Assembly (NCBI GenBank): GCA_010356995.1
Contig: ML996702.1
Coordinates: 496,001 to 560,000 of the forward strand
Direction: 5' to 3'
From: Trichodelitschia bisporula
Lineage: Eukaryota
DNA length: 64,000 nucleotides
Shown here: positions 7,925 to 52,174 of the stretch, in pieces
How positions within the stretch are numbered: position 1 is the first letter of the stretch
How the letters are laid out: the number at the start of each line of letters is the position of its first letter
Notes under the pieces: model-generated
What the model was told of the DNA's origin: nothing
Database searches by the model: none
The model's input: only the letters and a program-made list of their open reading frames with translations
Translations under genes and position numbers: made by a program

Positions 7925-9479
7925 CTATCTATACCGCCTCGGGCCCCTACTGCCTCTCCTCTCCCCCGCAGGTCCAGCCAGCATCTCAGCCGGGACATCA
8001 TTCCACGCCGCCTCGACCCTGCTGCCAGGATGCGGACCCGGCACCTGACTCTGCGCCGCCAGCAACGCCCGCGCATCACCCCGCTCCTCCTCATCGCTGC
8101 TCGTATCGTACTCATCCCCCTCATCCACCGCCGAGGGCCTCACCGGCCGATCCGCATACATCCCCGGCCCCCTCCCCAGTACCCGATCTGCCTTACTCCC
8201 CCTCCACGCCCCCTGCCCCGGCACGCCCATCGCCGCAACCCCCCCCTGCCCCACAACCCCCCTTTCCCACCCCCCCTCCCACCCGCGCTCCGCCTCGCGC
8301 CGTCTCCGCACTTCATCCCGGCGGCGCGACCACTCAGCGCTGGTTTCCCACGTCCAGCCGTCGCCGACGGAATTACACACCGGCACAGCCCAGAGCCAGG
8401 GGTTTGGGCCTAGGACGGAGCGTAAGTTGTGGGCCCAGCCGAGGTCGAAGGCGTTGGGGAGGGACTCGTCGTCGCGCTCGTCGAGGTAGGATTCGTAGCG
8501 TGCGCGTTCGCGGGCGCGCTCTGCGGCGTCGAAGGCGGCGGCGCGGCGGAGGGAGGAGGCGGCGGGGGAAAGCCCAGTGTCGGCGGGGGTGGGGAGGGTG
8601 CGGAGGGGTTGGTCTGCTGTCCAGTGGTTGGGTTGCGTGGGTTGCGGGGTTGGGGGGTGGGTGCGGAGCGGGGAGAGATAGCGTGTTTTTTCGAGGGATT
8701 CGATGGTTGTGCGGCCGCGGGCGGTGAGGTGGATGTGCCACGCCGTGAAGCCGGTGAGGACGAGGCCGAGGACACCGGAGACGACGGATAGGAGGATGAA
8801 GTTGACGGGCATGAGGGAGTCTTCCACCGTGCCGTCTATGATTATTTCGCTGTAGATCCATTGTATACTGGTGACGAAGGCGATGCCGGCGAGGAGGCAG
8901 GTGTAGACTAGGAAGAGGAGGAAGGGCTTGTAGTTGCGAAGACCGATGCAGTTTGCTAGCCAGGGGCAGTGATGATCCATTTTCAGGACGCAGCGCTTGC
9001 AGACGGAGCAGTGATGCGCGCGGTCTGGCTTGGGCGCCTGGCATTTCTTGCAGAAGCGCGTGCCGCCCGTGGACTTCGCTGTTACGGCTGTATAGACGTG
9101 GGGCGGTTCTTGCGAGGGTAGCGATGTGTATTCTGCGGTATGTATGGAGGGCGATCCAGGGTCGGTGAATACGGCTGTTGTGTAAGACCAGATGAGCATC
9201 AGGAAGAAGAACACGCCGAGCGCCACCTCGAGATAACCTATGCTTCCATTAGCCTGCGCACTTAGCAAGGAGTCGGCGCTGCAAACCAAGCTTCGACTTC
9301 ATCCCCAAGGCTATTGATGTCTGCACCCACACCGTCCACGCCGCCACGCCGTACACGAAGGAGAGCGGAAAGTAAGTCAGCACGCCGCAACAGCAGCGCT
9401 CGACTTTGCGCGCCCAGGTCCTGCGGCGGCGGGTGCGGAGCGGCGACAGGGGCGGCGATTCGGGTGCTAGAGTTGCCAT
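7925..9479 (-). CDS. PFA3: DHHC palmitoyltransferase, Pfa3 type; intron 9238-9286
   Basis: [44 protein letters not shown] motif, NAFDLG. Intron joins ...[13 protein letters not shown]. Confidence 0.93.
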
Positions 9480-10375
9480 GGTGGTAGAGGATGTTGCGAT
9501 ATGGAGGATTGTAGCAAAAGCGCCGTCTGCATGGCACGCTGGCGATGTGGCGGACGAAGGACGGACGGGACAAACGCGCAGCGCGGTTAGAACATGAACA
9601 TGTCAGGGAGGAGTGTTTAGCGAGCGGATAAAACTGGGAAAAGACGATTCGGCGGGAGGGTTTGTTGGGAGAAAAGGACTCGGCGCTGCTTCAGGTTGGC
9701 ATTTGGCTGTTGTTAAGGATTGAGGGATCGCGGAGGTTGATGAGATGAACTGTGAGCAACCCCGGGGGCGGAGGCGGGCTTGGCTGCGTTGGTGTGGCTG
9801 TGCTTTGGGGTGAGACGGGGAAATCTTGGCTAGCAGTTCCAAATCCGGGCTGGAAGCCTTGCGGCCTTGAGGCCTTGAAGCCTCGTCTCTCGCTGATTCA
9901 TTCTGGTGACGACAGCGTGCGCCTCACAAGGTCATCATCACTCATCGCCGCCCCTTCAATTAAGGAGGCATTTGGTTGGCAACATCCCACCGTCAACCCA
10001 CATTGAGCAGAGTACTAGAATTACTGATGGCGATCTACCGAGTACAAAATACAAAAGCATCCAGGCAGTCCTAGCCAACACGAATGCCCGCCCGAGACTC
10101 CCCGAAACCATTATCCGAGTTGCATAACAATCAATGTGAGCCAAAAATCAAACAACAAAAATGAAAATCGTACGCCGTGCTTCATAGCCTGACAACTGAC
10201 CAGAGGCCAGACCATCCGCCCGTCGTTCGAATGCTGTGCGAGTGTGGTGCGACGCCGAGCATCAGTCGAGCCGGCGGCCTTGTTGCAGAGTTCAAAGCTT
10301 GAGTAGCCGAGCCTTGAGGAGGGGCCGTCAGAGTCGAGAGTTGAGCGGCAGATGCGATGGGATGCCGGTGGCATC

Positions 10376-10533
10376 TTACATCACGATGCACCAGCCATAG
10401 TTGTCGGTTTGCCAGTCAGCTGAACTTCCACCTATGCGAGTGTTAGCAGATCTTCGAATGAGGGGGGATGATACATACCTTCCATGGTGGGCTTCGCGGT
10501 CCTGGGCATGATATCCGTAGTGAAACCAGACAT
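10376..10533 (-). CDS. Putative a-factor-type (CaaX, lipopeptide) mating pheromone precursor, 36 aa; intron 10432-10478
   Basis: ACAATG start context at 10533; intron GTATGT...GCTAAC...TAG (47 nt); spliced product MSGFTTDIMPRTAKPTMEGGSSADWQTDNYGWCIVM* ends in CaaX (CIVM); TATAAA ~110 nt upstream. Confidence 0.85.
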
Positions 10534-10642
10534 TGTATCGGTTGTTGAGTTTGGTGGGCCTGGAAAGAGGAATATTGGATGTGTGTAAGAGCGAATGATG
10601 ATGTCTTTTGATGAAGTATCCATACTGGAGAGGGCAAGGGAA

Positions 10643-10909
10643 TTTATAGGTCAGTCGCCGCTCCTAGAATTGCAAGACTCTCGCTTCTTTTCTCAATGCT
10701 GAAAGAAAGAGTTCAGAAGGGATTGGTCGAGTCATCGTCAAGTTCGTGATGTTCTCGAGCCCGATGCGGCAATTTTCTCTTTGTCGTCCTTAACATTGTC
10801 CCCCCCTGCCCCTTTGAGCATTCGCGCCACACAACGCCATACCGGGAAAGGATCACAAAGCCGACATCACCAAAACAACGCTGAGCTTTGTTTGACGGGA
10901 AACACAATG
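10643..10909 (-). promoter_or_regulatory. Promoter of the CaaX-peptide gene: TATAAA (10643-10648) and six HMG-box-type core sites (WCAAWG)
   Basis: On the + strand: CTTTGT 10779, CATTGT 10794, CTTTGA 10812, ACAAAG 10855, CTTTGTT 10886, ACAATG 10904. Confidence 0.55.
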
Positions 10910-11587
10910 TTAAGAAGAGCAACATCATCCGCCGTTTACATCGCGACAAATTCGGCAGTGTGAAAGACCGTCGGTTCCGAGGACAGGGCTGTGATTGGGG
11001 GGTTTCGTCATGACCGCTGGGATCAATGCTGAATTCCGGAGAGTGAAGCACTTCTTTGGTAGATGTCAAGAACTGACAATGAATGGAAGCCTTGGCTCAG
11101 TTTATGGAAGGACCGAGGTGCTTTCCGGATACCGAGCAGGATGATGGACCAGTTCCAGAAGACTTCGAAAGGCTGGAGGCTGAGGTGGGAGCGGACACTG
11201 CAGCCGGGTGGCGAGGGCGGGAGTGTCGTCACTCCTTCCAGTCAGCTTTTGGCTTCTGGGGCGAAAGGCGATCGGCAAGCGGGATCTCACGTCAGTTTTT
11301 CGGGCCGCCAGCTGGCGGCGGATGCTCCGGATGAACTATCGTATTCAGCTCTTCACTAAGAACACGGCCATCACTAGTCTGCAGGTGATGCAAAAAGGCG
11401 ACTTCGGGTCTTGGGATTTCACTGAGCGACGCCTGGCTACGAACACAACTGGTGTCACTCAAAATGTCATCTGATAGCAAGGTCTGCCTATTGGGTCATA
11501 ACATTAGCGCTGGCTAATCATATTTGCATCTTCTCATAGAGTACAGTTGCCAATCCAAAACTCGCTCCGAACGTCCAAAAGTCACAC

Positions 11588-13527
11588 CTAAACAAATCCA
11601 GCGCAGGTATACACAGCCTTCTCCCACCGCTCAAACATCTTCTTGCCAGCATCCTTGGCAATCTTGGGCTCGAAGGACGTGGCGCCCTCGGTGTTGATCA
11701 GCTTCAGCTCCTCGATGTCGTTCCACACGCCGACGGCCAGACCGGCGGCAATGGCGGCACCTAGGGCAGTGGTCTCGCGCATCTTGGGCCGAACGACGGG
11801 GATACCGATGAGATCGGACTGGGTCTGCATGCACAGATCCGAGTTGCTCATGCCGCCATCGACGGCGAGAGCCTGCAGCGCCTTGCCGCTGTCCTTCTCC
11901 ATGGCATCGAGAATGGCCTTGGTCTGGTAGCACGTGGCCTCCAGAGTGGCACGGGCAATGTGCCCCTTCTGTGTGTACTGCGTGACACCGACTGCGGATG
12001 TTAGCCAGGAAATTGCGGGAATCGGACCAACTTACGGATCGTTCCGCGGACATCGTCAATCCAGTACGGCGCAAACAGGCCGCTGAAAGCGGTGACGAAA
12101 ACAACACCACCGTTATCGTCTACAGTTTCGGCAAGCTCACCCACGGCCGCGGATGATTCGGCGAAGCCCAGGTTGTTCATCAGGAACTTGACGCCGCTAC
12201 CCGCAACCGCAATGCTGCCCTCAAGCGCATACACGGGCTTGCGCCCGGCGAAGTCGTAAGCCACCGTAGCGAGCAGGCCGTGCGTCGAGATTACAGGCTT
12301 CTCGCCGACGTTGTACAGCAGGAAGCAGCCGGTACCATAGGTGTTCTTGGCCAGGCCGGGCTCGAAGCCCTTCTGACCCACCAGCGCAGCGGACTGGTCG
12401 CCCAGGCAGCCCGTGATAGGCACACCGGCAAGGGCGCCCTCAGCGAGCGACCCATAGACAGTGGGGTCCGACGACTTGACAACCTTGGGCAGGTTGATCT
12501 TGCTGCGGTCAAGCTGGAAGAAGGAGATCAGGCTATCATCATAGTCGAGGGTGTTGAGGTTCATGAACATGGTGCGAGACGCGTTGGTGGGGTCCGAGAC
12601 ATGGACGTTCCGCTCCGGGCCGCCGTTGAGCTTGTACACCAGCCACGAATCGACGGTGCCGAAAGCCAGAGTGCCGTTGTCGTAGGCAGCCTTGACGCGC
12701 GGCACGTGCTGCAGCATCCACAGGAGCTTGGAGCACGACGGGTAGGTGCTCAGAGGCAGACCGCACTTGGCCTGCAGAGCATCGGCACCCGGGCGGGCCT
12801 TGAGCTCGCGCACCAGAGCGGCAGCACGCGTGTCGGTCCAGACGATGGCGTTGTACAGAGGTTGGCCGGTCTTGCTGTCCCAGACCACGGTAGTCTCACG
12901 CTGGTTGGTGATGCCGACGGCCTTGATGTTCTTGGCGGAGTAACCCTTGCTCGTGAGGTCCTTGACCGCGCCCTCGAGGCAGGTTGTGACGGAGGAGACA
13001 AGCTCAAGCGGGTCATGCTCGTGCCATCTGATTGCATGTCAGCACGTGACAGGTGAAGAATTAGGGTTCAAAGCTTACCCGGAGTTGGGGTATATCTGAG
13101 TGAACTCCATCTGGTGGGAGGCCACCGGCTGGCCACTCTTGTTGAAAATCAGAACGCGGGAGCTTGTGGTGCCCTGGTCAATGGCAGCCACGAGCTCCGC
13201 CTCAGGATCCACAACAACCTCTCCATTTTGCTCTTCGACCTTCTCCACGGGCTTCGTCTCCTCGACAGCAACAGGGGCCTCGCCATTCACAGCAGGTTTG
13301 CTTGTGTTCGAGAGTTCTATCTTCTCGAGTCTCTGCTCCAGCTTCTCGTTGGCCTTTTGCAACGACAGCAAAATATCGAGAATCTGCTGGTTGCTGGGCC
13401 CCGCATGCGGTGCTGACGCCGGCGCCAGACTGTCGGTGCGGAGAGGAGTTGCTCCAGACACGATGGACAGCTCGCTCTCAACGGCGCGGTTGAGGTCAGG
13501 CCTCTCGGTGAATTCTTGGGGGGCCAT
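11588..13527 (-). CDS. GUT1: Glycerol kinase; introns 13028-13078 and 11992-12035
   Basis: [74 protein letters not shown]; both introns restore frame. Confidence 0.97.
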
Positions 13528-17072: not shown

Positions 17073-18403
17073 ATGTCCTCCGCCCAGAAGCTCGAACACC
17101 GCACCGGCGACAGCAGCCCCCACTCCTTCTTGGAGGATGGCCAGAAGGGACTGCCGCTCGAGGAGCGCCAACACCACGAGCACCACCATCCGCAAGCTCT
17201 GACTGAGCATGGCGCGCCCATCGACTTCCACACGGAGCAGGCGGACGCCCTCGAATCGAACCCGAATCTTGCGTGGAGCAAGTTCCGCAGGGTGATGCAG
17301 GAGCCCTTCTCCGAGTTCTTCGGCACCTTCGTCATGATTCTGTTCGGCGACGGTGTCGTGGCGCAAGTCACGCTTTCTGGGGGCAAGAATGGCGATTACC
17401 AGAGCATCAATTGGGGTGAGTCGTGATATCCGAGTTTGGTCCGAGAGCCATGCTAACAGTTACAGCTTGGGGGTAAGCTTTTTCCACGCGTTCGATTTTT
17501 TATCCCGCATCGGGGCCCTCGTGGTTTCGTGTCGAGCTTCCCGGTCACCCGGATGCCGGCGGATCGGAACACGAGCCCCGAGCGGCCCGGTGCTCCCGTT
17601 TAGCTCGCTCTCCCAGCCAGTCCCGTAGAATAGTCGCTGACGTATGACAGACTGGGAGTGATGCTCGGCGTGTACTGCGGCGGCAAATCCGGTGGGCACC
17701 TGAACCCCGCCGTGACGTTGGCGAACTGCATCTTCCGCAAGTTCCCCTGGCGCAAGTTCCCGATCTACCTGCTCGCGCAGACGCTGGGCGCCTTCGTCGC
17801 CTCCGGCGTCGTGTATGCAAACTACAAGTCGGCCATTGACCAGTTCGAGGGCGGGCGTGAAATCCGCACCGTCCCCGGTTTCTCCAACCACTCCACCGCC
17901 GGCATCTTCTGCACCTACCCAGCCGAGTTTCTGACGCGCACGGGCATGTTCTTCAGCGAGTTCATCGCTAGCTCCATCCTCATGTTCTGCATCTACGCGC
18001 TGAAGGACGACGGTAACATCGGCGCCGGCAACCTCACCCCCCTTGGGCTGCTGTTCGTCATTTTCGGTCTGGGCAGCTGCTTCGGGTGGGAGACGGGTTA
18101 TGCCATGAACTTTGCGCGCGATTTCGGTCCCCGCTGCATGAGCTTTTTCCTGGGCTACGGGCACGAGGTGTGGAGCGCGGGTAACTACTACTTTTGGGTA
18201 AGCTAGCCCCTGACCATGTGGGGCGGCCTCGTGGCTAACAAGTGGGGCAGATTCCCATGGTTGCGCCCTTCTTCGGCTGTGTCTTTGGCGCTTGGCTGTA
18301 CGATATGTTCATCTACACGGGCGAGAGCCCGATTAATACCCCGTGGATGGGTCTGCGCCGCTTCACCCGCCCCACGAAGAAGGAGTGGTCGAACACTGTC
18401 TAA
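17073..18403 (+). CDS. Aquaglyceroporin (MIP family glycerol facilitator); exons 17073-17415, 17466-17472, 17651-18197, 18251-18403
   Basis: EFFGTFVMILFGDGVVAQV; spliced SINWAWGLGVMLGVY; GHLNPAVT; second box YAMNFARDFGPR with the glyceroporin Asp; YYFW|IPMVAPFFG. Confidence 0.95.
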
Positions 18404-29100: not shown

Positions 29101-30149
29101 CCGGTGCAGTGGTTCAGAAGGCTATTGTATCCCCATGTCTGCAACGCCTCAAGCTGCAGCTCGCCCGGTGCAGCACGGCCGTGACGGAACGGCAGCGGGG
29201 GGGTGAGAAGTGTGAACGTGTGATGGGAAGCGAGGGGAGTGATGAGGAGGAGAAGCTGAAGTGGTTTAAGGGGGGACGAAGGATGCCTCATCCCAGAGGT
29301 AAGTGTCTCAAGGCGAGAAAGGAGGAGCAGCTTCAGCTTCAAGAGAAGAAGAAGAAGCATCGTCGTCCTCGCAGAGGGTCCAGACAAGAGGCCGCCAGTC
29401 ATCCCCCCATCCCATATCGGCCCTCTGGCTTCCGGAGCTTTGTATCGTGCGCGGGGGTGGTGCGCCTTAGGGCCGTGCAGACTACCAATGGCCATGTCTA
29501 TTGGTCAATTGTGTGGGCGCCGGCGAACGGGGTTCAGGGCAGCAACACAGCTGGGCTTGTGAAGCCTTTCGCCTGAGCCTTTCAAGCCCTCGATGGGAGA
29601 AACCATGTTGTTGCTGGAGGACATGCGCCAGTCAAAGTCTATGTACACAGAAGTCTCGCCTGTCCTTGGCTTCTTGCTCTCCCGCGCCCGCTAAATATCT
29701 TAGTTGCTTGTCCTCTTGCTCGTGCCCTGGTCCCCTCCGGAGGTTGTTTCTGCGTGTATCCCCTCAATTTCGTTGTTTTTGAAGAAGCACTCGTTGCCGT
29801 CATATTTTTTGGAACAAAGAGCAAACGCAGTTCAATTGCTGGTGTCCGGATCTTATCTCCTCTAGAAATTTGCTTGTCTCGGAGCTTTGGTCGTTTTCCT
29901 TTCCTATCTCTACTCTCGCGAGGCAGCTCTTTTCGTCTCATTCCAGTATCCCCACCGCTCTTTTCCCCTCAACACCCCACCACCGATCACCAACGCCCAT
30001 AATAATTCTCCGCGCTGGAAACGCCAGACAGTCGTTGGCTTTGCGGGGCGAGATCAATTGACCCCACGATATCAGCATAACAGCCGCAGCAGCAACAAAG
30101 CCACAACGTCCATGCCCCTTTCGCCCCGCGAAAGGCACGACGAGGAGCA

Positions 30150-33100
30150 ATGGAGATCGCCGGTGCAGCCTTCCCCATCACGCCGCTACTCTCAACATGC
30201 ACCAAAATCGTCAAGATCCTGCACGACGTGGGCAAGAAGTTCCGCCGCGCCCCCCTCATGATGACATCCATCGCAACAGAATGCAGCCTCATCCACGTCG
30301 CCCTCGCCCAGCTGCGCAACTTCGACTGGGAGTCCATCGCCGCCTACGGCGACGGCCGCCACGAGCACATCACCCGCGCCACCGAGAGCATAATCCTAGG
30401 CTGCACGCTCACGCTCTCCGTCATCGAGGAATATGCCACGGAGCTGCAGGACTACGTCGAGGGGTCACCGCTTTCTCCGACTGAGCAAATGGGCATTATG
30501 GCGCGCGTCCGCGTCCTCTGGAAGGAAGACGAAATGCGCGAATTGCTCCTGCAGCTCCGCGGCTACCAAACGGGGCTAACCAACCTCCTCCGCGACGCTC
30601 ACGACTCCACCTTTGCCGACACAGCAGAGGCGCTCCTAGGCGGCGGCACCAATAACTTCGCGACCCTCCTCCAGCGCTCCCGCTCCTCCCGCGCCCGCAA
30701 ACCGCTGTCTATACGCGCCGCCATGCAGCAGGCGAGCACGTACAGCAGCTTGACGCGCGGGCTGCCGCAGACCAGTTCCCCGACCAGCACGGCGCACTCC
30801 GCCAACGCGAGCGTCAGCACCACGACCAGCTCACGGCAGAGCACCATCGCATCCAGCGTGTCGTCCGCCACGCTCTCCAGCCGCAACAGCAGCGTCAACG
30901 CGCTGTCTCCGACCGAGAGCACGGAATCTCTCCCCGCGAAGCGCAAGGCCCCGGATGCGGCGCGGCGCAAGCGCCCCGCTTTCCTAGCTCTCCAACCCGA
31001 AGAACCCGAGGCTGAGACTGAGCAGAAGACGCTTAGGCAGGCGCGGCCCCGGCGCCGGAATCGCGATCAGTTGAGGAAGAGTTCGCCGACTGTGGGGGAG
31101 AACTTTAAGTTTATTCCTGGGGAGCCGCCGGTTACGGATTTGCCGGAGGAGGAGGAGGAGGTGCGCGCTGCTGAGGAGCGCGAGCAGGAGGAGAGGGAGC
31201 GGGTTGAGCTGGAGCGGGAGCAGGGGCGGGAGCGGGAGAGGCTTGAGCGTGAGCATGAGGACGAGCATGAGCATGATGAGCGCGACCATGAGGAGAAGGA
31301 GGGCAGTGAGACGGAGACGGATGACGACCATGACCACTCACCCGACGAGCGCTTCCCCCCCTCCAAACCGCTCCCCGCCATCGCCCCCCCCAAACCCCCC
31401 TCCCGCTCCCAACACCGCCCTGCAAGCCAAACCCCCAACTCGGCCCCTCAAATCCCCTCCCGGGCCCCATCACGGCAAGGCGGAAACCTACCCCCCTCAC
31501 TCCCGTCACAAAACGAGCGGCGCAAGGCGAAGGCGCCGGTTCAGCAACAGCAGAGCTTTTACGACGACGATGATCATGAGCGTGAGCAGCATGAGCATGG
31601 GAACCGCGAAGTGGCCGACCTACGGGACAAGGGGCGCCAGTCGCACACGCCGAGTCCACATGGGTTTGTGCGGAAGGGGAGTACGGCAAGCGAGGAGCCG
31701 CGGAGGACGCCGACGAGTCCTCGTCAGTTGCAGCAGCAGCAGCAGCAGCAGCAGTATGAGCAGCAGTATCAACAGCAGCAAAACGGGCACCAGAACGGGT
31801 ATCAGAACGGCAACCAGAGCGAGTATCAGAACGGGCACCAAAACGGCTACCAAAACGTCCAAGCCACCCACCAAAACGGCCACTACTCCCCCGAACCTTG
31901 CCCCCCCTCCCAACACCCACGCAAGCAAAAATCCTCCTCCTCCGTCCGCGACCAAATAATGACTCTCCCGGAAACTGCCCGCCTGCGCAAAGAAGCAAGC
32001 GGCGAACTCAAAGCGCGGGCCCAGGGCCACCCGGTGCCCCCGCAACTCCCCCACGCCCACACCTACCCCTCGCACGAAACCCATCTCCCGGACGAGCCCG
32101 AGCACCACCCACAGGACCACCCCCCCTACTCCCCAACCCCCATGCACATCCTCGGCCCCCCCCGCACCTCCTCCCTAGAGGGCCTAACCCGCTCCCGCGC
32201 CGCCACAGACACTACCTCCGGCCCCTCCACCCGCGCCGGCCCCGCCTACAACTACACAAACGGCGTCCCCCTCTCCGTCCGCACCCGCCGCGGCCACTCC
32301 GCCTCAACCCCCGTCACGCGCTCCGCCTCCGACGCACGCCGCCCGCAGCCCGCCCAACCGGCGTACCAAACCGCAGGCCAGCAGCACTGGCACGCGCAGC
32401 ACGCGTACGCTATCCAGAACGGGGGGCCGAACGGGGCACACCCAGTCGAGGACCCGTATGTGCGGGCGCAGTCCCCCCAGAACCAGGATAGCCAAGGCGG
32501 GGACGCGGAGTGGCCTTTGCAGCCCGCCGATGCGCCCTCCATGCCGCGCATGCGCCGCGCGGAGGAGCAGCGGACGTATGTGCCTTCCCGGAACCCGCCG
32601 CCGGCACGGAGGGCCCCGCCGATATTGCTGGATTATGCGGCGAGGCCGAGTAGGGCGAGTACGCCGTATGGGGTTACGCCGAGGGGGGGCAGGAGTCGGA
32701 CGAATACGTTGAGGACTATTGAGAGTACGGATGCGAGTATTTTGGAGGGGGAGGGGGGGGGGGAGTATGTGAGTCCCGGCGGGGAGGGGGGTGGGTACAC
32801 AAGCCCAACGGAGGGGCACGGGTACACGAGTCCGACGGGAGAGGGACTGGGGTTGCCGGAGGGGACGGATGATGGGGCGAGTGTGGCGCCGAGTGTGTTG
32901 AGTGCGCAATGGTATCGGCATCCGAGGGAGAGGCTGGGGCTGGGGAGTCGGATTTCGAGGGCGGAGGTTGTGCCGTGGGAGATGGGCGAGTATGAGGTGC
33001 GGGTTGAGGGGGGGGAGGGGGTTTACCCGGGTGCTGGTGGACAGCCGCGGGGACAGGTGCAGCCCGGGCAGGCGCAGGCGGGCGCGCAGAGCCCGAAGGC

Positions 33101-33932
33101 GAAGAAAGGGCCGTTGTTTAGCGTGTTCCCGCCCAGGGCACCGAGTCGCATGCGCGAGGAGCAGGTCGAGAAAGCGGAGGACGCGCCGCGGAGTCCGCTT
33201 CTCACGGACGGGTTTCTGAACGGTGTTAGCAAACCCACGCCCGCCAGGCAAGCGGAGGAAGACGGCTCGAAGGCGAGCAGCAAGGACCGCAGCGTTGCGT
33301 CGCGCGGCAGCGAAGAAACCTCCAGCAAAGACGGGAAGAAAAAGAAGGAGAAGAAGGAAAAGAAGAGCAAGTTCGGCATGCTCGGCGAGATGTGGTCGGA
33401 GTACAAGGACTCGACCAACGCGCTGTATTTCACCGGATACTCCGCTGAATACGAGGCGCAGCAGGCGCAGAAGGACGTGAAGCGCAGCGCGTCCCGCCCT
33501 TCCACCGGCTCCGAGAGCCTGGTCAGCAGCACCGCGGCGAAGGAGAGCACTTACAGCACCGCCCCCACCCCCGGCCCGACAGTCGCAACCCTCACCCCCG
33601 CCTCGCACCACCACTACGTCCAAGCCCAATACGAAGCGCACCGCTCCACACAGCGCGCCGACCGGGAACCCAAACGGAGCGACAGCGTCGCCGAAACCCG
33701 CCCCCCGAGCAGCGCCGGGCACTACGGGCCCGTCCCGCCACGAAGACCGAGCCGAGACGCAGAGACGAGCCTAGCAGGTGGGAACAGCGGGGCCGCGGAG
33801 GGGGCTCACGGGAAGCAGGGCAAGTTCCCGACGCTGACGGAGATGTGGAGCGAGTACAAGAGCATGGGGGAGCAGTGGTACACGGCACCGTATAAGAGTG
33901 AGGAGCAGGGGAATATTGCGAATCCGCGGTAG
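30150..33932 (+). CDS. 1260-aa protein: N-terminal helical HeLo-like/STAND-N-type domain followed by a long low-complexity region
   Basis: Uninterrupted ORF. N-terminus IVKILHDVGKKFRRAPLMMTSIATECSLIHVAL.QL...ILGCTLTLSVIEEY...RVRVLWKEDEMRELLLQLRGYQTGLTNLL matches the fungal STAND N-terminal pattern from memory. Confidence 0.8.
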   Translation: MEIAGAAFPITPLLSTCTKIVKILHDVGKKFRRAPLMMTSIATECSLIHVALAQLRNFDWESIAAYGDGRHEHITRATESIILGCTLTLSVIEEYATELQDYVEGSPLSPTEQMGIMARVRVLWKEDEMRELLLQLRGYQTGLTNLLRDAHDSTFADTAEALLGGGTNNFATLLQRSRSSRARKPLSIRAAMQQASTYSSLTRGLPQTSSPTSTAHSANASVSTTTSSRQSTIASSVSSATLSSRNSSVNALSPTESTESLPAKRKAPDAARRKRPAFLALQPEEPEAETEQKTLRQARPRRRNRDQLRKSSPTVGENFKFIPGEPPVTDLPEEEEEVRAAEEREQEERERVELEREQGRERERLEREHEDEHEHDERDHEEKEGSETETDDDHDHSPDERFPPSKPLPAIAPPKPPSRSQHRPASQTPNSAPQIPSRAPSRQGGNLPPSLPSQNERRKAKAPVQQQQSFYDDDDHEREQHEHGNREVADLRDKGRQSHTPSPHGFVRKGSTASEEPRRTPTSPRQLQQQQQQQQYEQQYQQQQNGHQNGYQNGNQSEYQNGHQNGYQNVQATHQNGHYSPEPCPPSQHPRKQKSSSSVRDQIMTLPETARLRKEASGELKARAQGHPVPPQLPHAHTYPSHETHLPDEPEHHPQDHPPYSPTPMHILGPPRTSSLEGLTRSRAATDTTSGPSTRAGPAYNYTNGVPLSVRTRRGHSASTPVTRSASDARRPQPAQPAYQTAGQQHWHAQHAYAIQNGGPNGAHPVEDPYVRAQSPQNQDSQGGDAEWPLQPADAPSMPRMRRAEEQRTYVPSRNPPPARRAPPILLDYAARPSRASTPYGVTPRGGRSRTNTLRTIESTDASILEGEGGGEYVSPGGEGGGYTSPTEGHGYTSPTGEGLGLPEGTDDGASVAPSVLSAQWYRHPRERLGLGSRISRAEVVPWEMGEYEVRVEGGEGVYPGAGGQPRGQVQPGQAQAGAQSPKAKKGPLFSVFPPRAPSRMREEQVEKAEDAPRSPLLTDGFLNGVSKPTPARQAEEDGSKASSKDRSVASRGSEETSSKDGKKKKEKKEKKSKFGMLGEMWSEYKDSTNALYFTGYSAEYEAQQAQKDVKRSASRPSTGSESLVSSTAAKESTYSTAPTPGPTVATLTPASHHHYVQAQYEAHRSTQRADREPKRSDSVAETRPPSSAGHYGPVPPRRPSRDAETSLAGGNSGAAEGAHGKQGKFPTLTEMWSEYKSMGEQWYTAPYKSEEQGNIANPR

Positions 33933-37463: not shown

Positions 37464-40400
37464 TCAAGTGTACACCTCCTCGGTAAAAGCATTCAACCCA
37501 AGCCCCTCCTGCGCAATATCCTCCTCCTTCAAAAACAGCAACGGCATCTCCACCAACGTCCCCTTAACCTTACTCAACAACTCCTTCACCTCCGCTACAC
37601 CCCCCGGGAACTCCTCCCGCACCACATGGCCAACCTTATACGTCCCCGCCGGCACCTTGGCCTTCTCATCCGCCAGCCGGAAGTGCTTGAGATACCACTC
37701 GTCATACTGCTTCCAGTTCTTGACCGAGTCGTGGGGGACCGGGTGGAACACCCTTCCGAATACATCGGTATTCGTGCGCGCGCGCTCGTTCCACAAGCCC
37801 TCGAATATGGGCGCCAGCGGGTCGGACACCAGCCGGTCTTCGGCCGAGCCCCAGTCGTAAGTATTCCCACTCGCGCCAACGGGCTCGTAGTTCGGCTGCG
37901 GGCGCTCATAGTCCTGCGGCGGCAGGAGGCCCAAATGCTTGCGGAAGATCTCACGGCGTAGGGAAGCGGCAAAACGCGAGCCCACGCACGGCCGCCCGTT
38001 CATCGTGATGTCCAGCGGCGTGTGGTCCGTGATCACGACGGCGATTTCCGAGTCATGGTCGCCGAGCTGCGAGCGGTCGTTGAGGTTGGCCGAGCCACAG
38101 ATAACGATACGGTCGTCGGCGATGAGAAGCTGCCCACATTAGTGCGCCCACCAAACCCTTTCAACGACGAAACTCACCTTCGAATGCACGTACAACTCCT
38201 CCGTCACAAAGGCGTCAATCTCATCCACGTTCCCTGTCTCCCACGGTACACTGCGGATGTCTGGCCCGTTGAGCATGTAGCACTCGGCCACCGAGTCCCA
38301 GCGCCCGCTGCCTAGAGCCCCGCCGCCAACCTGCCCTGCACCGGCTTGGTACTGGTGGTACGGGTCGTTCGGCGGGTATTGAGGCTTGTCGCCGTAGCCG
38401 CTGGCCGGAGGTGGGGGGCCGGGTGGTGGGCCGGGGAGCTGGCCATACTGCTGCTGCTGTGGCTGACCGTACTGCTGTTGCGGCGGCTGACCGTACTGCT
38501 GTTGTTGTGGCTGACCGTATTGCTGCTGCTGTGGTTGGCCGTGCTCCTGCTGTTGCGGTTGGCCGTATTGTTGCTGGCCGTATTGCTGAGGCTGGCCAGG
38601 CTGACCATATTGCTGTGGCTGGCCGGGTTGTCCGTAAGGCTGAGGCGACTGGGGCTGCCCAGGCTGCCCATAAGGCTGAGGCGACCGCGACTGCTCGGCC
38701 TGGCCATACGGCTGCGACGACTGCGGCTGCCCAGGCTGGCCATACGGTTGAGACGACTGCGGCTGCCCAGGCTGGCCATACGGTTGAGACGACTGCGGCT
38801 GCCCAGGCTGACCATACGACTGAGCCGGCTGCTGTCCCGGCTGCTGTCCCGGTTGCTGTCCCGGCTGCTGCGCATACCCACCACCATACAGATCATCATG
38901 CTGCTTCCTCGCATCCTCATACGGCACGCCCGTCTTCATCTCCACCTCCTTCATCGCCTTCCCCACATTAATCCGATCATAATTCCTCAAATTATAAAAA
39001 CGGATATACTCCATCGGGTTAATCCCCTCTCGTGCCAGTGACTCGTAAATACTGTGTCCCCCGCGGTTAATCGAGTTGTACTGGAACTCCATGATCGCAC
39101 GCGTGGACAGTGCGTCGTCGCTGCGTAGATCGCCCGCGAAGGCGGGGATCGCGGGCATGACGACTATGATTTTGTACCGCTGTTGGTTGCGGTGCGCACG
39201 GATGATGCGCTCGGTGATGGCGGCGCCAATTTTGTTTTTGATCGGTTTTTGAGAGGGGGAGGTGGCGGTGATGAAGAATTGGTTTTCGATGTACACGAAA
39301 TGTTCGCTGTGTTTGATCGTGCTGATGTAGGCGTCTGCGATCGAGTGCTGCCCCCGTAAGTTAGCTCTTTCCCCCCAGCCTGGCTGCAACTAACGTACCT
39401 CAATCTGCCCCCCATGGCTCCACTTCGCACAACTCCGCACAATCTGGCAACTCATCCCCTCTTTCCTCGCCTGCGACGACGGGCCCGGCTGCCCGAACCC
39501 CGGCTCGTGCTGGAATCCGAACTTCGTATCAAACCTATCTTCTAGCTTCTGCACGCCGCCTGAGAGGCGCCGGCGCATCTTTTCGTCTAGAATACCGTGC
39601 TCGCCCGTTAGGTACTTGTCGAAGCCGTGCATGCGGCCGCGGGACGAGGGACGCTCGTTTTCTTGCCCGTGGTGCGTGCCCTGCACGCGGGAATCCCAGC
39701 CGCGCGAAGTTTCGTCCTCCAAACCACGCTGGCCTGGCCCGGGGGCTGGACCGGAGGGGTCCTGGCCTTGGCTGGGGGGAGGCGGGAAGTATGGCTGCGA
39801 GGCTGGGGTGGGCGTGTATGTCTGCGGGGTGTAGCCAGCCTTGGGAGGGGGAGGGTATTGCGGCCCGGGTTGGCTGGGAGTATGCGGTGGCGCGGGGGAG
39901 GGGCCTGGGGCGTAGTAGCCTTGCTGGGGCGCGTTTCCGGGTTGCGGGTAGCCTTGCTGTGGGGGCGGGGGGTACTGCTGGCCGGCTTGACTCGGACTGT
40001 GAGGTGGCTGTGGTGTAGTACCTTGAGGATTGTAGCCTTGCTGGGGCTGGTACCCGGATTGCGAGGCGTGAGGCTGAGGAGTCTGCTGATGCGGACCACC
40101 AGCCGGACCGGTGACTGCATACCCGCCGGCCGGGGGCTTATTCTCCAGGCGAGAATACCGGACGTCCTTGCGGGACGTGTACTTCTCATCATAAATAAAG
40201 TTCCACCGCTGAACAAAATGCTCCTTCAAATCGCCGACCACGGGGCCACTCAAGCTGAGGCTGACATCCGTCCATCCCATGCGTGAATTAACCGTGCGGT
40301 CCAACTTGTTGTTCTGCCAGTTAACCACGTCCTGGAAGTCCATGATACGGCTATTATTATAGTCCTGGCCCACATACACGATTTTATTCAGATCGGCAGG

Positions 40401-41805
40401 ATGTGCATCCGCGATGCCGTGCTGATTCGTGTCCCACCGCCCGTAGCACAAGTCCAGTCCGCCCATGAAAGCGAGTGTCCCGTCTACGAGGCACAGCTTC
40501 TCGTGGTGCGCCCAGTAGAGCACGGTGTCTGCTGACACGCCGTAGAGCGATTTAAGCGCGTCGCCGGGGAGCTTGGATGCGGTTGCGGCGGTGAGGTTTA
40601 TGTTCTGCAGGTTGGCCATGAAGGACGAGTGCACGACTTGCCGGTCGGGCAGATGGTCGGGGTGGCGGAAGACGCAGATGTTTGGATGCAGATCCTCGAG
40701 GTGGTGCTTGGTGTGGGAGGAGGAGACTGTGAGGGGGGGCGCGATTAGCGGGTCGGTTTCCTCAGTGTACTCTAAAGACCTGGTGATCGCGTAGAGGCCG
40801 AGTTTTACGAGGGAGCTTGTCATCCAGTCCATTGAGGAGGGAATTGCGGAGTGGATGTAGTCACTGAGCGTGGGGTTGATGTACTTACGGGTCAACGCTT
40901 GAGTCACCTGTTTCGTTGTCAGTGGCTCCGTGAGGGAGGTGGGCGATGTTTCTTACCTCCTTGTACACGATGATATTGACCTTGACGCCGCGCTTCGCCG
41001 CCGCTTCGAGCATGCGGTCAAGCCGGTACTGCTCGTTCTTCGCCGGCGGGCGGCGCAGATACAGCTCCGGCGACAGCCACCCTACCCCTTCAGCATCATC
41101 ATTCAACTCAAGCACACAGCAACTCACAGTCAAGAATCCAAATGGACTCGCGCGCGCTCTCTATCGCAACAGACACAGCCCACATGTACCCACACCCGTC
41201 GACATACCACTTAGCATCATTGCCCTCCCGCTCCGGCACGAAGCTCAGATAGCGATTATTCGCATACGCCTCGTGAGCACCGGGATGGCAATTCCCGCTC
41301 GGATGCGTATGGCTGTGTTCCTGCTCCGTGCTCGTGAGGCGCGTTTTGATCTCCTTACCTACGGAATGGACTGCTCCGTGGAGCTTATCGAGCACGAACG
41401 CCATGCCAGGGGAATCCGGGGGCCGCGGCGAAGTACTCGTAGCAGAACTCGACTCAGCAACCGAAGCCGAAGTTGGTGAAGTAGCAGAAGCGAACTGAGG
41501 GCGCTGGTTGAGCAGATGCGGCTGGTAGGTCTGGGTGACGGGGTCCTGTTCACCAGCGTCGTTAGCGCCGCTTCTCAGTAGCGGGGTAGGTTGCGGGCTG
41601 GGCGGGCATTTCTTACAGGTCGCCCGGAGGCGGAAGCGCCGACCCCTCCTCCTGCTTCTGGCGTTGTTGGTCGCCGGATGCGCCCGACGAGCCCGTCTAG
41701 AAAGCCGCTGCGGGTGCGCTCGCTGGGACCGCGGGAGGAGCTGGAGTAGTCGCCGTAGGCGAGGTCGTCGTCGTCGCCGTCGTCGTCGAGGCGTTTGCGG
41801 GACAT
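37464..41805 (-). CDS. Phospholipase D (two HKD motifs, no PX/PH evident); introns 41546-41616, 41082-41127, 40908-40956, 40727-40888, 39348-39398, 38130-38177
   Basis: KWYVDG, WILDWWLSPELYLRRPP, WAHHEKLCLVD..AFMGGLDLCYGRWD, YIENQFF, YVHSK|LLIADDR.VICGSANLNDRS. All splice junctions keep frame. Confidence 0.95.
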
Positions 41806-42508: not shown

Positions 42509-43118
42509 ATGTCTCCCTCCAACATCGGAACCCCCGACCACCCCGTCGCAACCCTCGACGTACCTCCCCCCTCCCCAAACATCACCTCCTATAGACTAAC
42601 CTCATCCCTAGGCCAGCCTCGCCCCGCGCCTCCCAACTAGCTCCACAACCCTCTTCACGGCCAAAAAAGCCAAAAACCTCACCTTCCAAGCCATCGGCGA
42701 AGCCCTAGGGCGTGACGAAGTCGCCGTCGCCGCGCTCTTTTACGGGCAAGCCAAAGCCACCTCCGCCGACATCGGTGCCCTCGCCGAACTCCTCGAGATC
42801 CCCCAAGAACAGCTCGAAGCCGAACTAGGCGAGTGGCCCGACCGGGGACGGAGCATCGATCTCCCTCCCAAGGACCCGCTTCTCTATCGGCTGTTTGAGA
42901 TCATGCAGAATTATGGGTATGCGTACAAGGCGGTTATGAATGAGAAGTTTGGCGATGGGATTATGAGTGCTATTGCGTTTTCGACCAAGGTGGAGAAGGA
43001 GTCGGATGAGGTGGGGGATTGGGTTAAGATTACCCTTAGGGGCAAGTGGTGAGTGGTCCTTCTTTGTGGGAATGTGTTCTTTGCTGACAAGTGCAGGCTG
43101 CCGTATAAGCGGTTCTGA
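42509..43118 (+). CDS. cyn1: Cyanate hydratase (cyanase); introns 42560-42611 and 43049-43096; its main frame is absent from the ORF track
   Basis: Spliced: ...[45 protein letters not shown]...PDRG...[37 protein letters not shown]...ITLRGKW|LPYKRF*. Confidence 0.96.
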
Positions 43119-49186: not shown

Positions 49187-52174
49187 TCAGCACGCATAAA
49201 CTTTTATAGACTCGCCCCTCCGCACCCCTCCCCCCTCCCCCCCCCCCTCCTCCGAACTCCCATACCCCGCATCGCTCTCCTCCCATTCCCCCCCCCCAAC
49301 GCCAACACCAACCAGCACCCGACTCGCCCTCAAACACCTCTCCACCACCACCCCACGCACACCCTCATCCCCCACCGCCCTCCTCCCCCCCTCCCCCCCG
49401 ACCCAAACCCTCATAACCGCCGCCAAACGCTCCAATCCCCCCCTCGCCACCCCCAACATCCCCTTCTCCTCCTCCGTACAGTGTCGGAGCAACATAAACG
49501 CCGCCACAAAGCTCAGCAACGTGAAGCCCGCCTCTGCAGGCGCATACGCATTCACCATCGCCGCCACGACTTCAGCGCCCACGGCGCTGGTCTCCGCGAC
49601 GCACAGGCACTTCGCGAGCGCCAGCGCGGTCTTGACGTCGACGCCGACGGGCCTCTCGCTGACGTCGTTGAGCAGCGAGGATGGGGAGGCGGGGACGGGG
49701 AGGGCGCGCTTGCGGGAGGGGAGCGTGGCGAGGGCAGTGCGGATGTGCGCGTCGCGGTTATGCGGGACGAGTACGGCGCGGGAGACCAGGGCGCGGACGT
49801 GCGCGGTCGAAGTCGGGGGCGCGGTTTTAATAGCCAGCTCGAGATCGGCGTGTAAGTCAGATTCGGCATCGGCGCCTGGGTCCGTAGTAAGGGACTGGAC
49901 CAGCACGTGCGAGACCATGAGGGTGGACCACCAGGCGGCGAGGGCATCGAGGGGCGACGAGATGGCGAAGTCCTCAACCACTGTATCCATGCTCTCATCG
50001 GCGCGGACGTCCTCGGCAACCGGCTTATTCCAGGCAAGGTTGTACGCGCGCTGGATGATGGGCGCGACGAGCACGTCATCTGAATCCAGCTCGAGCAGCG
50101 CGGCGAGGTGTTCGGGCAGGGCCTCGATGCCCTCGCGCTGGTCGTGCGGGGTATTCATGTAAAGATGGTGCTCCTCGCGGGAGGCATTCCAGTAGCGACG
50201 TGAGAGCTTGGCGCCCACGAAGTCGAACTTGAACCACTTGACCGCCTTCGCGACCTCCCAGAGCAAGACGCGGATGTGCAGCGCCTTGAGCATCAAGCGG
50301 ACCGGAGTATCGGGTAGCGTGCCCGAGGCCATGAGCGTGAGAATCAGGCGGCTCATGCTGATCTCGGCGTCGCCGCCTGTGAGCTGCGCGTCAAGGGCAA
50401 TGTCCCAGGCCTTGACGCGGGCGGCTTCTTGTTCCTTGGTGATGCCGGTGAGCAGGGCGTAGCCGTGCCAGCCGACCAGCTTGCGCGTGCTCAGCTTCAG
50501 CGTCTTGAGCACCAGGGCCGCCAGCTCGAGCAAAAAGCTATGGCGCGGTACCCAGACGGTCTGGATGGCGGTCAGCCATGCTTTGCGGCGGACCTCGACA
50601 GGCGAAGCGAGAGAGGGCACAGGGGCTAGGCGGACAGCTGAAGTCCCCTTTCTCTTCGGTCTCGGCTTGAAGTCGAACAGCGGGGCGATGACGTATATGA
50701 CCGCGCTAAGCAGCACCAACAGCTTGAGGCTCGAAAACGCGGCGTGGGACGAAAGACCAAAGACCGATTTCGGAACCAAAGAGTCCGCAATGAGACGGAG
50801 AAGAGGGAAGGGCAAGGCAAATAATCCCCGATCCTCAGGAGCGTCACCGGACTTTTCCGCCTCCCGCGCCACAAAGCCTTCCATGAACATGAGCCCGGCC
50901 AACGAACCTACCATGAGCTTCGCGGCAAAGTTGGACCCGCGTCCGCGTCCTTGGAATCCGTTTTCACCAGGCATATGGCCACGGGCTGGACTGCCTGCAT
51001 ACATAGGGTAGCCGTTGGCCGGGGTCGGGTACGGCGCTTGGGCCGCCTGGGCACGGTGGAGGTTCATGATGTTCTCAGGTACGGGAATAAGACCCTGTGG
51101 CGGGTTCGGGTCGGGCATCTGCGGTGCCGATGGTCTAGGAAACGTCTGCTCCGCGTACCGTGGCAGGCCATCTGGCATAACCAACGCCCCAGCATTTGCC
51201 AGCTTCTCATACTGTTGCAGTCGCGCCTTGTACGATGCCACCTCATCCTGAAGTACCTTGTTACGCCTCTCGAGGTGCCGAATGTATTCCGTTGCCTTGG
51301 AAAGTACAGTAGCCTTGTTCAGCTTGTGAGCAGGCGTCAGGCCATCCAAGTCTTCTTGGTCGTCGTCTTCGTCACACTGGCCGTTTGCGCGAGACGTAAC
51401 GCGGAGACTGGGGACGCTGTCTCGCAAGGCGGCGATCTTGTCGTTGAGGTTAGTGCGATATCGCTTCTCGATCATGTTGTGCGACGTCTTCTTCACGGGG
51501 CCTTGTTTTCCCGTCTTTTCGGATCCCGATTCTCCACCGGAGGACTTGCGCTTCTTATTCCGGGACTGCACGGGCTCGGGTGAGGACTCCTGTGAGTGAG
51601 AAGCGTGCGCCGAACCCGGACTGTGTTCGAGACCTGGCGTTGAAATCGGTGGCGCTGGAACGGAGCCGGTTTGCAGCTGCTGGTCGTCCGGTGAAAGCGG
51701 CGATACCAGAGTCTGGTTAACCGCGTCCAGGGATGATGTCGGGCTCCAGGTGCTGCCGATGGGGAAAGATGTCGACGCTGAACTGGGAATGGTCGACGGA
51801 TCGAACGCAGGCACCCCAAAGTCAAATGCCGGGGCCATGCTCAGCGGCTGACCGAAGGAGTATGGAATACCATCCAACCTGTGCGGCACATAGGCTGGAA
51901 CAGTTTGGATGGAAAGTGTCTCTTCGACGGAAGGTTGGCGAGGAGTGTACGCGGGTGGTTTTTGCTCGGGCTTGACGAACGAAAGGGGACTCTGTGGATT
52001 GCGAGCCTTTGGAGACGGTTGTGCCTGCGCGGGATTCCATGCCATGAACTCCTCCCAGGCTCCTCCCGGTACGGCATCGTGAGGCTGTTGCGAAATGAGT
52101 TGAGTTTCGTCTGATGGCGCAACAATCCATGCCGATCCGTCGTTCAGATCGTAAGCTCCCGCTGATCCGTCCAT
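49187..52174 (-). CDS. srbA: SREBP-type bHLH transcription factor (SrbA/Sre1 type) with TM segments and C-terminal DUF2014
   Basis: KKTSHNMIEKRYRTNLNDKIAALRDSVP carries the SREBP-diagnostic Tyr; KLNKATVLSKATEYIRHLE; KLMVGSLAGLM; RRKAWLTAIQTVWVPRH; AWDIALDAQLTGGDAEIS; first ATG at 52174. Confidence 0.93.
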   Translation of the reverse strand: MDGSAGAYDLNDGSAWIVAPSDETQLISQQPHDAVPGGAWEEFMAWNPAQAQPSPKARNPQSPLSFVKPEQKPPAYTPRQPSVEETLSIQTVPAYVPHRLDGIPYSFGQPLSMAPAFDFGVPAFDPSTIPSSASTSFPIGSTWSPTSSLDAVNQTLVSPLSPDDQQLQTGSVPAPPISTPGLEHSPGSAHASHSQESSPEPVQSRNKKRKSSGGESGSEKTGKQGPVKKTSHNMIEKRYRTNLNDKIAALRDSVPSLRVTSRANGQCDEDDDQEDLDGLTPAHKLNKATVLSKATEYIRHLERRNKVLQDEVASYKARLQQYEKLANAGALVMPDGLPRYAEQTFPRPSAPQMPDPNPPQGLIPVPENIMNLHRAQAAQAPYPTPANGYPMYAGSPARGHMPGENGFQGRGRGSNFAAKLMVGSLAGLMFMEGFVAREAEKSGDAPEDRGLFALPFPLLRLIADSLVPKSVFGLSSHAAFSSLKLLVLLSAVIYVIAPLFDFKPRPKRKGTSAVRLAPVPSLASPVEVRRKAWLTAIQTVWVPRHSFLLELAALVLKTLKLSTRKLVGWHGYALLTGITKEQEAARVKAWDIALDAQLTGGDAEISMSRLILTLMASGTLPDTPVRLMLKALHIRVLLWEVAKAVKWFKFDFVGAKLSRRYWNASREEHHLYMNTPHDQREGIEALPEHLAALLELDSDDVLVAPIIQRAYNLAWNKPVAEDVRADESMDTVVEDFAISSPLDALAAWWSTLMVSHVLVQSLTTDPGADAESDLHADLELAIKTAPPTSTAHVRALVSRAVLVPHNRDAHIRTALATLPSRKRALPVPASPSSLLNDVSERPVGVDVKTALALAKCLCVAETSAVGAEVVAAMVNAYAPAEAGFTLLSFVAAFMLLRHCTEEEKGMLGVARGGLERLAAVMRVWVGGEGGRRAVGDEGVRGVVVERCLRASRVLVGVGVGGGEWEESDAGYGSSEEGGGEGGGVRRGESIKVYAC

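Follow-up and report, generated by a model that had tools for sequence, protein, structure and literature searches.

A candidate intron-split a-factor-type pheromone precursor gene lies antisense to a spliced RNA in a Dothideomycete

A 64,000-nucleotide stretch of Trichodelitschia bisporula contig ML996702.1 (positions 496,001–560,000), here called the window, carries a candidate two-exon gene for a small CaaX peptide. The gene lies on the minus strand (10533..10376; window positions are used throughout), between a DHHC palmitoyltransferase gene and a glycerol kinase gene. An earlier prediction had left its strand unnamed. The window contains 130 N and has 58.5% G+C content, compared with 52.8% in the intergenic region (9480–11588) and 46.8% in the candidate intron. 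Features are listed in Table 1.

Table 1. Positions of the candidate gene, the overlapping RNA and neighboring features
Feature	Positions	Strand	Remarks
DHHC palmitoyltransferase gene (PFA3 in the original prediction), left neighbor	7925..9479	-	Intron removed in contigs, joint 9234->9284
Plus-strand RNA, exon 1	9936..10135	+	Left end 9936 (run X2) or 9954 (run X1); divergent from DHHC gene
Plus-strand RNA, exon 2	10211..10649	+	Contains whole candidate gene and TATA box, antisense
Candidate exon 2	10376..10431	-	56 nt; completes Gly codon, ends NYGWCIVM + TAA
Candidate intron	10432..10478	-	47 nt; GTATGT donor, GCTAAC branch site, TAG acceptor
Candidate exon 1	10479..10533	-	55 nt; ATG, 18 codons and first base of split Gly codon
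Upstream in-frame ATG	10621..10623	-	20 nt downstream of TATA box; product 66 aa if transcribed
TATAAA box	10643..10648	-	115 nt upstream of candidate ATG; one of 13 TATAAA in window, both strands
Plus-strand RNA, exon 3	10717..11481	+	Longest ORF 98 aa (11063-11356)
Three ACAAAG/CTTTGT motifs	10779, 10855, 10886 (span 10779..10892)		HMG-box core
Plus-strand RNA, start of exon 4	11540..11600	+	Contig merges with convergent glycerol kinase mRNA
Glycerol kinase gene, right neighbor	11588..13527	-	FGGY_N/FGGY_C; intron 11992-12035 removed in contigs
Cyanase gene	42612..43049	+	Cyanate_lyase, E 2e-30; 32 kb from candidate, same window

The ATG context, 47-nt intron, TATAAA box, and 36-aa CaaX product named in the original prediction are all present in the sequence. 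The start codon (10533–10531) stands in an ACAATG context, and the GCTAAC branch site (10447..10442) lies 11 nt before the 3′ end of the intron. Joining the exons by script gives a 111-nt coding sequence with the CaaX box Cys-Ile-Val-Met at 10390..10379 and TAA at 10378..10376. No unspliced ATG ORF runs to the CaaX end. Two further features were not given in the earlier prediction. One is the in-frame ATG at 10623. The other is a second in-frame acceptor (CAG) at 10421 on the minus strand, 11 nt inside exon 2; its use would remove four residues and leave the CaaX end untouched. The GC3 of the candidate coding sequence is 0.67, and that of a glycerol kinase exon is 0.78.

The available text of PMC10569646 describes precursors of the a-factor class as shorter than 100 aa, with a C-terminal CaaX or CpaX, often a Ser/Thr-rich N-terminus, and a Gly-Tyr motif; CaaX by itself is described there as not specific. 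The candidate precursor has 36 aa (66 if translation starts at the upstream ATG) and ends C-I-V-M-TAA. Its 36 aa fall inside the 21–66 aa range of the S2 a-factor list of the same paper, as far as that list was available. A Gly-aromatic motif is present, with G-W right before the Cys and Y two residues earlier. Ser and Thr account for 5 of the 18 N-terminal residues, which is moderately rich at most. Read by eye, these 18 residues are polar or charged and include no hydrophobic run, and no signal peptide was recognized.

Bare CaaX-stops occur 3 times in the window against 1.6 expected. A CaaX-stop alone is not beyond chance, whereas the combination of features is. Combinations were counted with a scanner that accepts an ATG followed by an open frame with no more than one intron-like element (GTRNGT...CTRAY...YAG, 40–120 nt) and ending in C-[VILM]-[VILM]-X-stop. 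In the 64-kb window, the candidate locus was the only spliced case. The 80 fungal metagenome loci, 387,323 bases in all, yielded no spliced CaaX ORF. Among 600 windows simulated with a second-order Markov model, three contained a spliced CaaX ORF, and all three lacked both the aromatic residue in front of the Cys and the C[VI][VI]M end. The same 600 windows contained 210 direct short CaaX ORFs, one of which combined these two features. For the full GTATGT/RCTAAC/YAG pattern, 0.065 occurrences are expected per window; two were observed, one of them in the candidate. Looser intron-like patterns number 14 in the window. Most of these lie between long open frames and are for that reason taken as real introns, and one (12035..11992) was confirmed by an RNA contig joint. 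The gene anatomy and its rarity are direct observations, and a chance origin of that anatomy is unlikely.

The three ACAAAG/CTTTGT motifs lie 250–360 nt upstream of the candidate. ACAAAG is the core motif of HMG-box factors such as MAT1-2-1. The cluster is the only spot in the window with at least three such motifs in 567 nt; 0.7% of all 567-nt stretches reach that number. Ste12 and Mcm1 consensus sites were also sought upstream of the candidate, and none were found. Because several motifs were tried, the HMG-core cluster lends modest support.

Open frames of at least 110 aa (228 in the window) were all scanned against Pfam at E 1e-6 (ten at 0.01), and 63 were rescanned at 0.01. The cyanase gene found in this way is of interest for its linkage. 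In the partly available literature, a cyanase (cyanate lyase) gene adjoins the a-factor gene in Neurospora, Magnaporthe, Fusarium, Nectria, Epichloe, Chaetomium, Podospora, and Colletotrichum, and EBP2 and a MYND protein are often near this Sordariomycete locus. A check for cyanase/EBP2 microsynteny placed the cyanase gene 32 kb from the candidate, whose direct neighbors are the DHHC and glycerol kinase genes. EBP2 and MYND had no match among the 228 open frames. Between 39.5 and 47 kb, the surroundings of the cyanase gene contain no better CaaX ORF. The linkage of candidate and cyanase is loose, unlike the adjacency in Sordariomycetes. Given the usual size of fungal genomes, the chance that a randomly drawn 64-kb window includes a cyanase gene is estimated at well below 1%. 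Three features support a real gene independently of how the ORF was picked: TATA box, HMG-core cluster, and cyanase linkage.

Several other features of the window were recorded. The cyanase gene (42612–43096) has an intron-like element (43049–43096, plus strand) with a chance CaaX-like stop, C-V-L-C, inside it at 43073. A major-intrinsic-protein (aquaglyceroporin-like) gene at 17634–18203 (plus strand) is separated from the glycerol kinase gene by about 4 kb, and the two may form a pair for glycerol uptake and use. On the minus strand, a 1006-aa open frame (49190–52207) combines a helix-loop-helix domain with DUF2014, the architecture of an SREBP-type sterol regulator. Open frames with phospholipase D active-site motifs at 37467–40952 (minus strand) are separated by intron-like elements (39398–39348 and 38193–38130) and probably form one large PLD gene. 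An uninterrupted open frame of 1283 aa at 30081–33929 (plus strand) matches no Pfam family at E 0.01.

Transcription was assessed with two runs from one sample of one study, probably of the sequenced strain; mating type and growth condition are not given. The runs were labeled RNA by guess and were treated as cDNA on the basis of intron skipping. Contigs were placed on positions 8900–12300. They skip 9234->9284 and 11991->12036 exactly at the breaks in the DHHC and glycerol kinase ORFs, which identifies the material as spliced cDNA. Both skips have minus-strand GT..AG ends. A single contig per run crosses the candidate locus, in segments 9936 or 9954–10135, 10211–10647, 10715–11479, and 11538 onward, with the exon 10211–10649 unbroken in 2/2 runs. 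The original prediction had proposed a spliced transcript as its test. The contigs of both runs keep the 47 nt, and a spliced RNA of the plus strand runs through the locus. Bin depths over 10268–10609 equal the depth of that single contig, so there is no alternative contig at the candidate. In this sample the locus is read from the opposite strand, and the candidate gene would thus be silent or minor there. Since contigs drop minor forms, they establish the presence of the antisense RNA and are still compatible with a minor sense mRNA.

The start of the plus-strand RNA and the 5′ end of the divergent DHHC gene's contig are about 190 nt apart; on the other side, the RNA runs over the 3′ end of the glycerol kinase gene, which is convergent with it. 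Its three introns are of the GT..AG type, at 10136–10210 (75 nt), 10650–10716 (67 nt), and 11482–11539 (58 nt), with donors GTGAGC, GTCAGT, and GTCTGC and acceptors CAG, CAG, and TAG. All frames of the spliced RNA are interrupted by stops, and its longest ORF has 98 aa. A protein-coding role was considered and rejected, as the 98-aa ORF belongs to no Pfam family and has repeat-like matches only (eight among 1.84 billion representatives, all weak and multi-stretch). No Rfam match was found over 9700–11800 at E values up to 1. The transcript is apparently a spliced non-coding RNA, antisense to the candidate.

Relatives of the host and of the locus were sought by protein and metagenome searches. 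The best matches of a 717-aa Ybp2-family protein of the window, other than its own record at 100%, are metagenome proteins with 56–61% identity. Its best named matches are Dothideomycetes, namely Tothia fuscella (56%), Venturia species (53–54%), and many Pleosporales (50–54%). A glycerol kinase exon reaches 83% identity with metagenome proteins, and the only named match among the 120 listed is Zopfia (72%). In the Atlas, the glycerol kinase matched bacterial FGGY clusters only, which says nothing about taxonomy. Judged by its protein sequences, the host belongs to the Dothideomycetes, and no close named relative is present in the protein database searched.

The query for the candidate was its unspliced exon-2 frame of 40 aa, 22 of them intron- or antisense-derived; in a set of 5.8 billion proteins, none of 22–70 aa had three 5-residue words in common with this frame. 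An Atlas search with the last 20 residues of the candidate gave no usable match. The degenerate pattern N-[YF]-G-W-C-[IVM]-[IVM]-M-stop had 0 matches in metagenome contigs. Through relatives of the glycerol kinase, 80 metagenome loci with Dothideomycete-like kinases (51–84% identity) were fetched. None of the 80 is syntenic; they contain no DHHC gene and no similarity to the intergenic region, and no similar CaaX peptide was found in these non-syntenic loci. The gene order of the window downstream of the glycerol kinase gene is likewise matched by none of them.

Published work was searched as well. According to the available text of PMC10569646 (2023), no filamentous ascomycete other than Sordariomycetes had yielded an a-factor gene before the Leotiomycete candidate of that paper, which is unrelated in sequence. 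No Dothideomycete a-factor gene was found in the published literature searched. The tail string of the candidate occurs in none of the papers searched and in none of 12 of the 14 supplements of PMC10569646.

Three other explanations were weighed. The candidate could be a chance ORF inside exon 2 of a plus-strand non-coding RNA, or of mere bidirectional-promoter transcription, with that transcription unit as the sole functional element. The contigs, which carry plus-strand RNA and keep the 47 nt, are as this explanation expects, and so is the search result that no homologue or conserved locus was found. Chance supplies about 1.6 bare CaaX-stops per window and supplied the 210 short direct CaaX ORFs of the 600 simulated windows. 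The first-stage scan spanned very many windows, so that rare coincidences get picked up, and the partly available literature holds examples of accidental small CAAX ORFs near other genes. However, a bare CaaX-stop is far more common than the joint pattern: the spliced form arose in 3/600 simulated windows, never with the aromatic residue or the C[VI][VI]M end, and in none of the 387 kb of metagenome loci. The full intron consensus, at 0.065 expected per window, is also rare, and a TATA box, an HMG-core cluster, and a cyanase linkage that played no part in picking the ORF agree with a real gene. We consider a chance ORF somewhat unlikely.

The evidence for a real gene would apply equally to a small prenylated peptide that is not a mating pheromone, such as a membrane-anchored micro-protein or a signal for vegetative growth. 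A possible parallel is the conserved Leotiomycete CaaX protein, which is expressed regardless of mating type and whose mating role is doubted by its authors, who consider a non-mating function for it themselves (PMC10569646, available text). Such a function is very improbable here, as 36 aa leave room for a processed tail only, and the pheromone class is marked by features seen here: aromatic residues next to the Cys, linkage to cyanase, and HMG-core motifs. The detection of antisense RNA only in the sample would also fit a decaying or permanently silenced pheromone gene, with its frame intact and unused (for example after loss of outcrossing) and the antisense RNA running over it. Repeated losses of a-factor genes are described for Colletotrichum in the partly available literature. 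Yet the candidate shows no damage to its start codon, splice signals, frame, CaaX box, or stop, and silence is not provable from one RNA sample. A decaying gene is barely credible.

We moderately favor the explanation that the candidate is a real a-factor-type pheromone precursor gene, silent or minor in the sampled condition and overlapped by a spliced antisense RNA. The pheromone reading of the original prediction is partly supported by a gene anatomy far from chance, a tail like those of Sordariomycete a-factors, the cyanase gene, and the HMG-core cluster. It is weakened by the lack of a spliced sense transcript in the sample, by the searches that found neither homologue nor syntenic locus, by the 32 kb between candidate and cyanase, by the different N-terminus, and by the intron in the coding region. 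Its mature peptide, (TDN)YGWC-farnesyl with 4–7 residues, is pure conjecture from the D-N-Y motif alone.

The yeast a-factor and Neurospora MFA-1 pathway is the established basis for the processing steps proposed here. The two-exon gene would be transcribed from the minus strand and spliced to encode a precursor of 36 aa (66 aa if the upstream ATG is used) that lacks a signal peptide and ends in C-I-V-M. By analogy with that pathway, the Cys would be farnesylated, the last three residues (I-V-M) removed, and the new C-terminus carboxymethylated. The N-terminal part of the precursor would then be trimmed. The result would be a short aromatic lipopeptide, ...YGW-Cys(farnesyl)-OMe, exported by an ABC transporter and presumably bound and sensed by a Ste3-type receptor on the partner. 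Silence in the sample would fit specificity to one mating type or one developmental stage; expression that depends on mating type is the pattern in Sordariomycetes.

Regulation of the candidate by the antisense RNA fits the layout, although this is speculation. The antisense RNA may start at a promoter shared with the DHHC gene. It could act as an off-switch, via transcriptional interference or duplex formation, and repress the pheromone gene except in the appropriate mating type or stage. The complete picture, a functional Dothideomycete a-factor pheromone that is still loosely cyanase-linked, intron-split, and placed inside an exon of an antisense RNA acting as its off-switch, is doubtful as a whole; it would make the cyanase-linked a-factor locus ancestral to a large part of Pezizomycotina.

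Both pheromone receptors are retained in filamentous ascomycetes, but their lipopeptide ligand has been hard to find. Among the Dothideomycetes are numerous crop pathogens, as well as rock or lichen fungi, whose sexual cycles are poorly known. If the pheromone reading is correct, the candidate would supply the missing ligand and make mating competence testable in such fungi. It would be the first a-factor-type gene for Dothideomycetes in the literature searched, which was available in part, and its intron split would be unusual. It would also tell what to look for in other genomes, namely an intron-split ORF with an aromatic-C-[VI]-[VI]-M end within tens of kb of a cyanase gene. The spliced antisense RNA would add a regulatory layer of a kind not described for pheromone genes in the partly available literature that was searched.

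Natural antisense transcripts of filamentous ascomycetes are likewise spliced, have no long ORF, and overlap a gene on the opposite strand, which in this case is the candidate. For the plus-strand RNA, a regulatory effect is hypothetical. Like the Leotiomycete putative a-factor (Botrytis BCIN_13g03330 family), the candidate is a small unannotated CaaX protein outside Sordariomycetes. The available text of PMC10569646 describes that family as 45–64 aa long with a conserved block, C-x-E-C-D-G-Y-x-C-C-C-I-P-I-P-C-T-V-M, and a few members ending in CIVM. Membership of the candidate was rejected by eye against the full family list, as it has a single Cys and no Cys-rich block. Trichoderma reesei HPP1 and the multi-copy forms of Verticillium and Huntiella are also CaaX precursors of filamentous ascomycetes. 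These contain several repeated CaaX-like units, whereas the candidate has a single one.

Saccharomyces cerevisiae MFA1/MFA2 and other yeast a-factors share with the candidate a similar precursor length, a CaaX end, and an acidic D-N-aromatic motif. In yeast a-factor, this motif marks the N-terminal cut site, and the mature peptide has 12 residues. A cut at the same type of motif would give a mature peptide of 4 residues in the candidate. The yeast genes are intronless and encode a CVIA box, in contrast to the CIVM of the candidate. In the available part of the PMC10569646 S2 list, yeast a-factors are 33–38 aa long with DN-Y/W before the mature part and the CVIA box, Colletotrichum a-factors are 34–47 aa long with CVVM or CVIL, and those of Sordariales (Neurospora, Sordaria, Chaetomium) end in PQT(T/S)..NFNGYCVVM.

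Sordariomycete a-factors include MFA-1 of Neurospora crassa, PPG2 of Sordaria macrospora, MF1-1 of Magnaporthe, PPG2 of Fusarium, and those of Colletotrichum. The candidate differs from them in having no detectable homology beyond the short tail, and it begins MSGF rather than with the MPST of Sordariales. Its coding sequence is intron-split; the a-factor literature consulted, itself available in part, describes no such interruption of the coding region. Its host is a Dothideomycete, and no sense transcript of it was seen in the two runs. Its cyanase gene is distant rather than adjacent, and EBP2 was not found in the window. Like the Sordariomycete a-factors, it is short, lacks a signal peptide, and ends in C-[VI]-[VI]-M, with Gly and aromatic residues before the Cys, Q-T..N upstream, and a cyanase gene nearby. 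Aligned by eye and unscored, with two one-residue gaps allowed, the candidate tail ...WQTDNYGWCIVM has Q-T, N, an aromatic residue, G, an aromatic residue, C, V, and M in common with the Sordariales tail.
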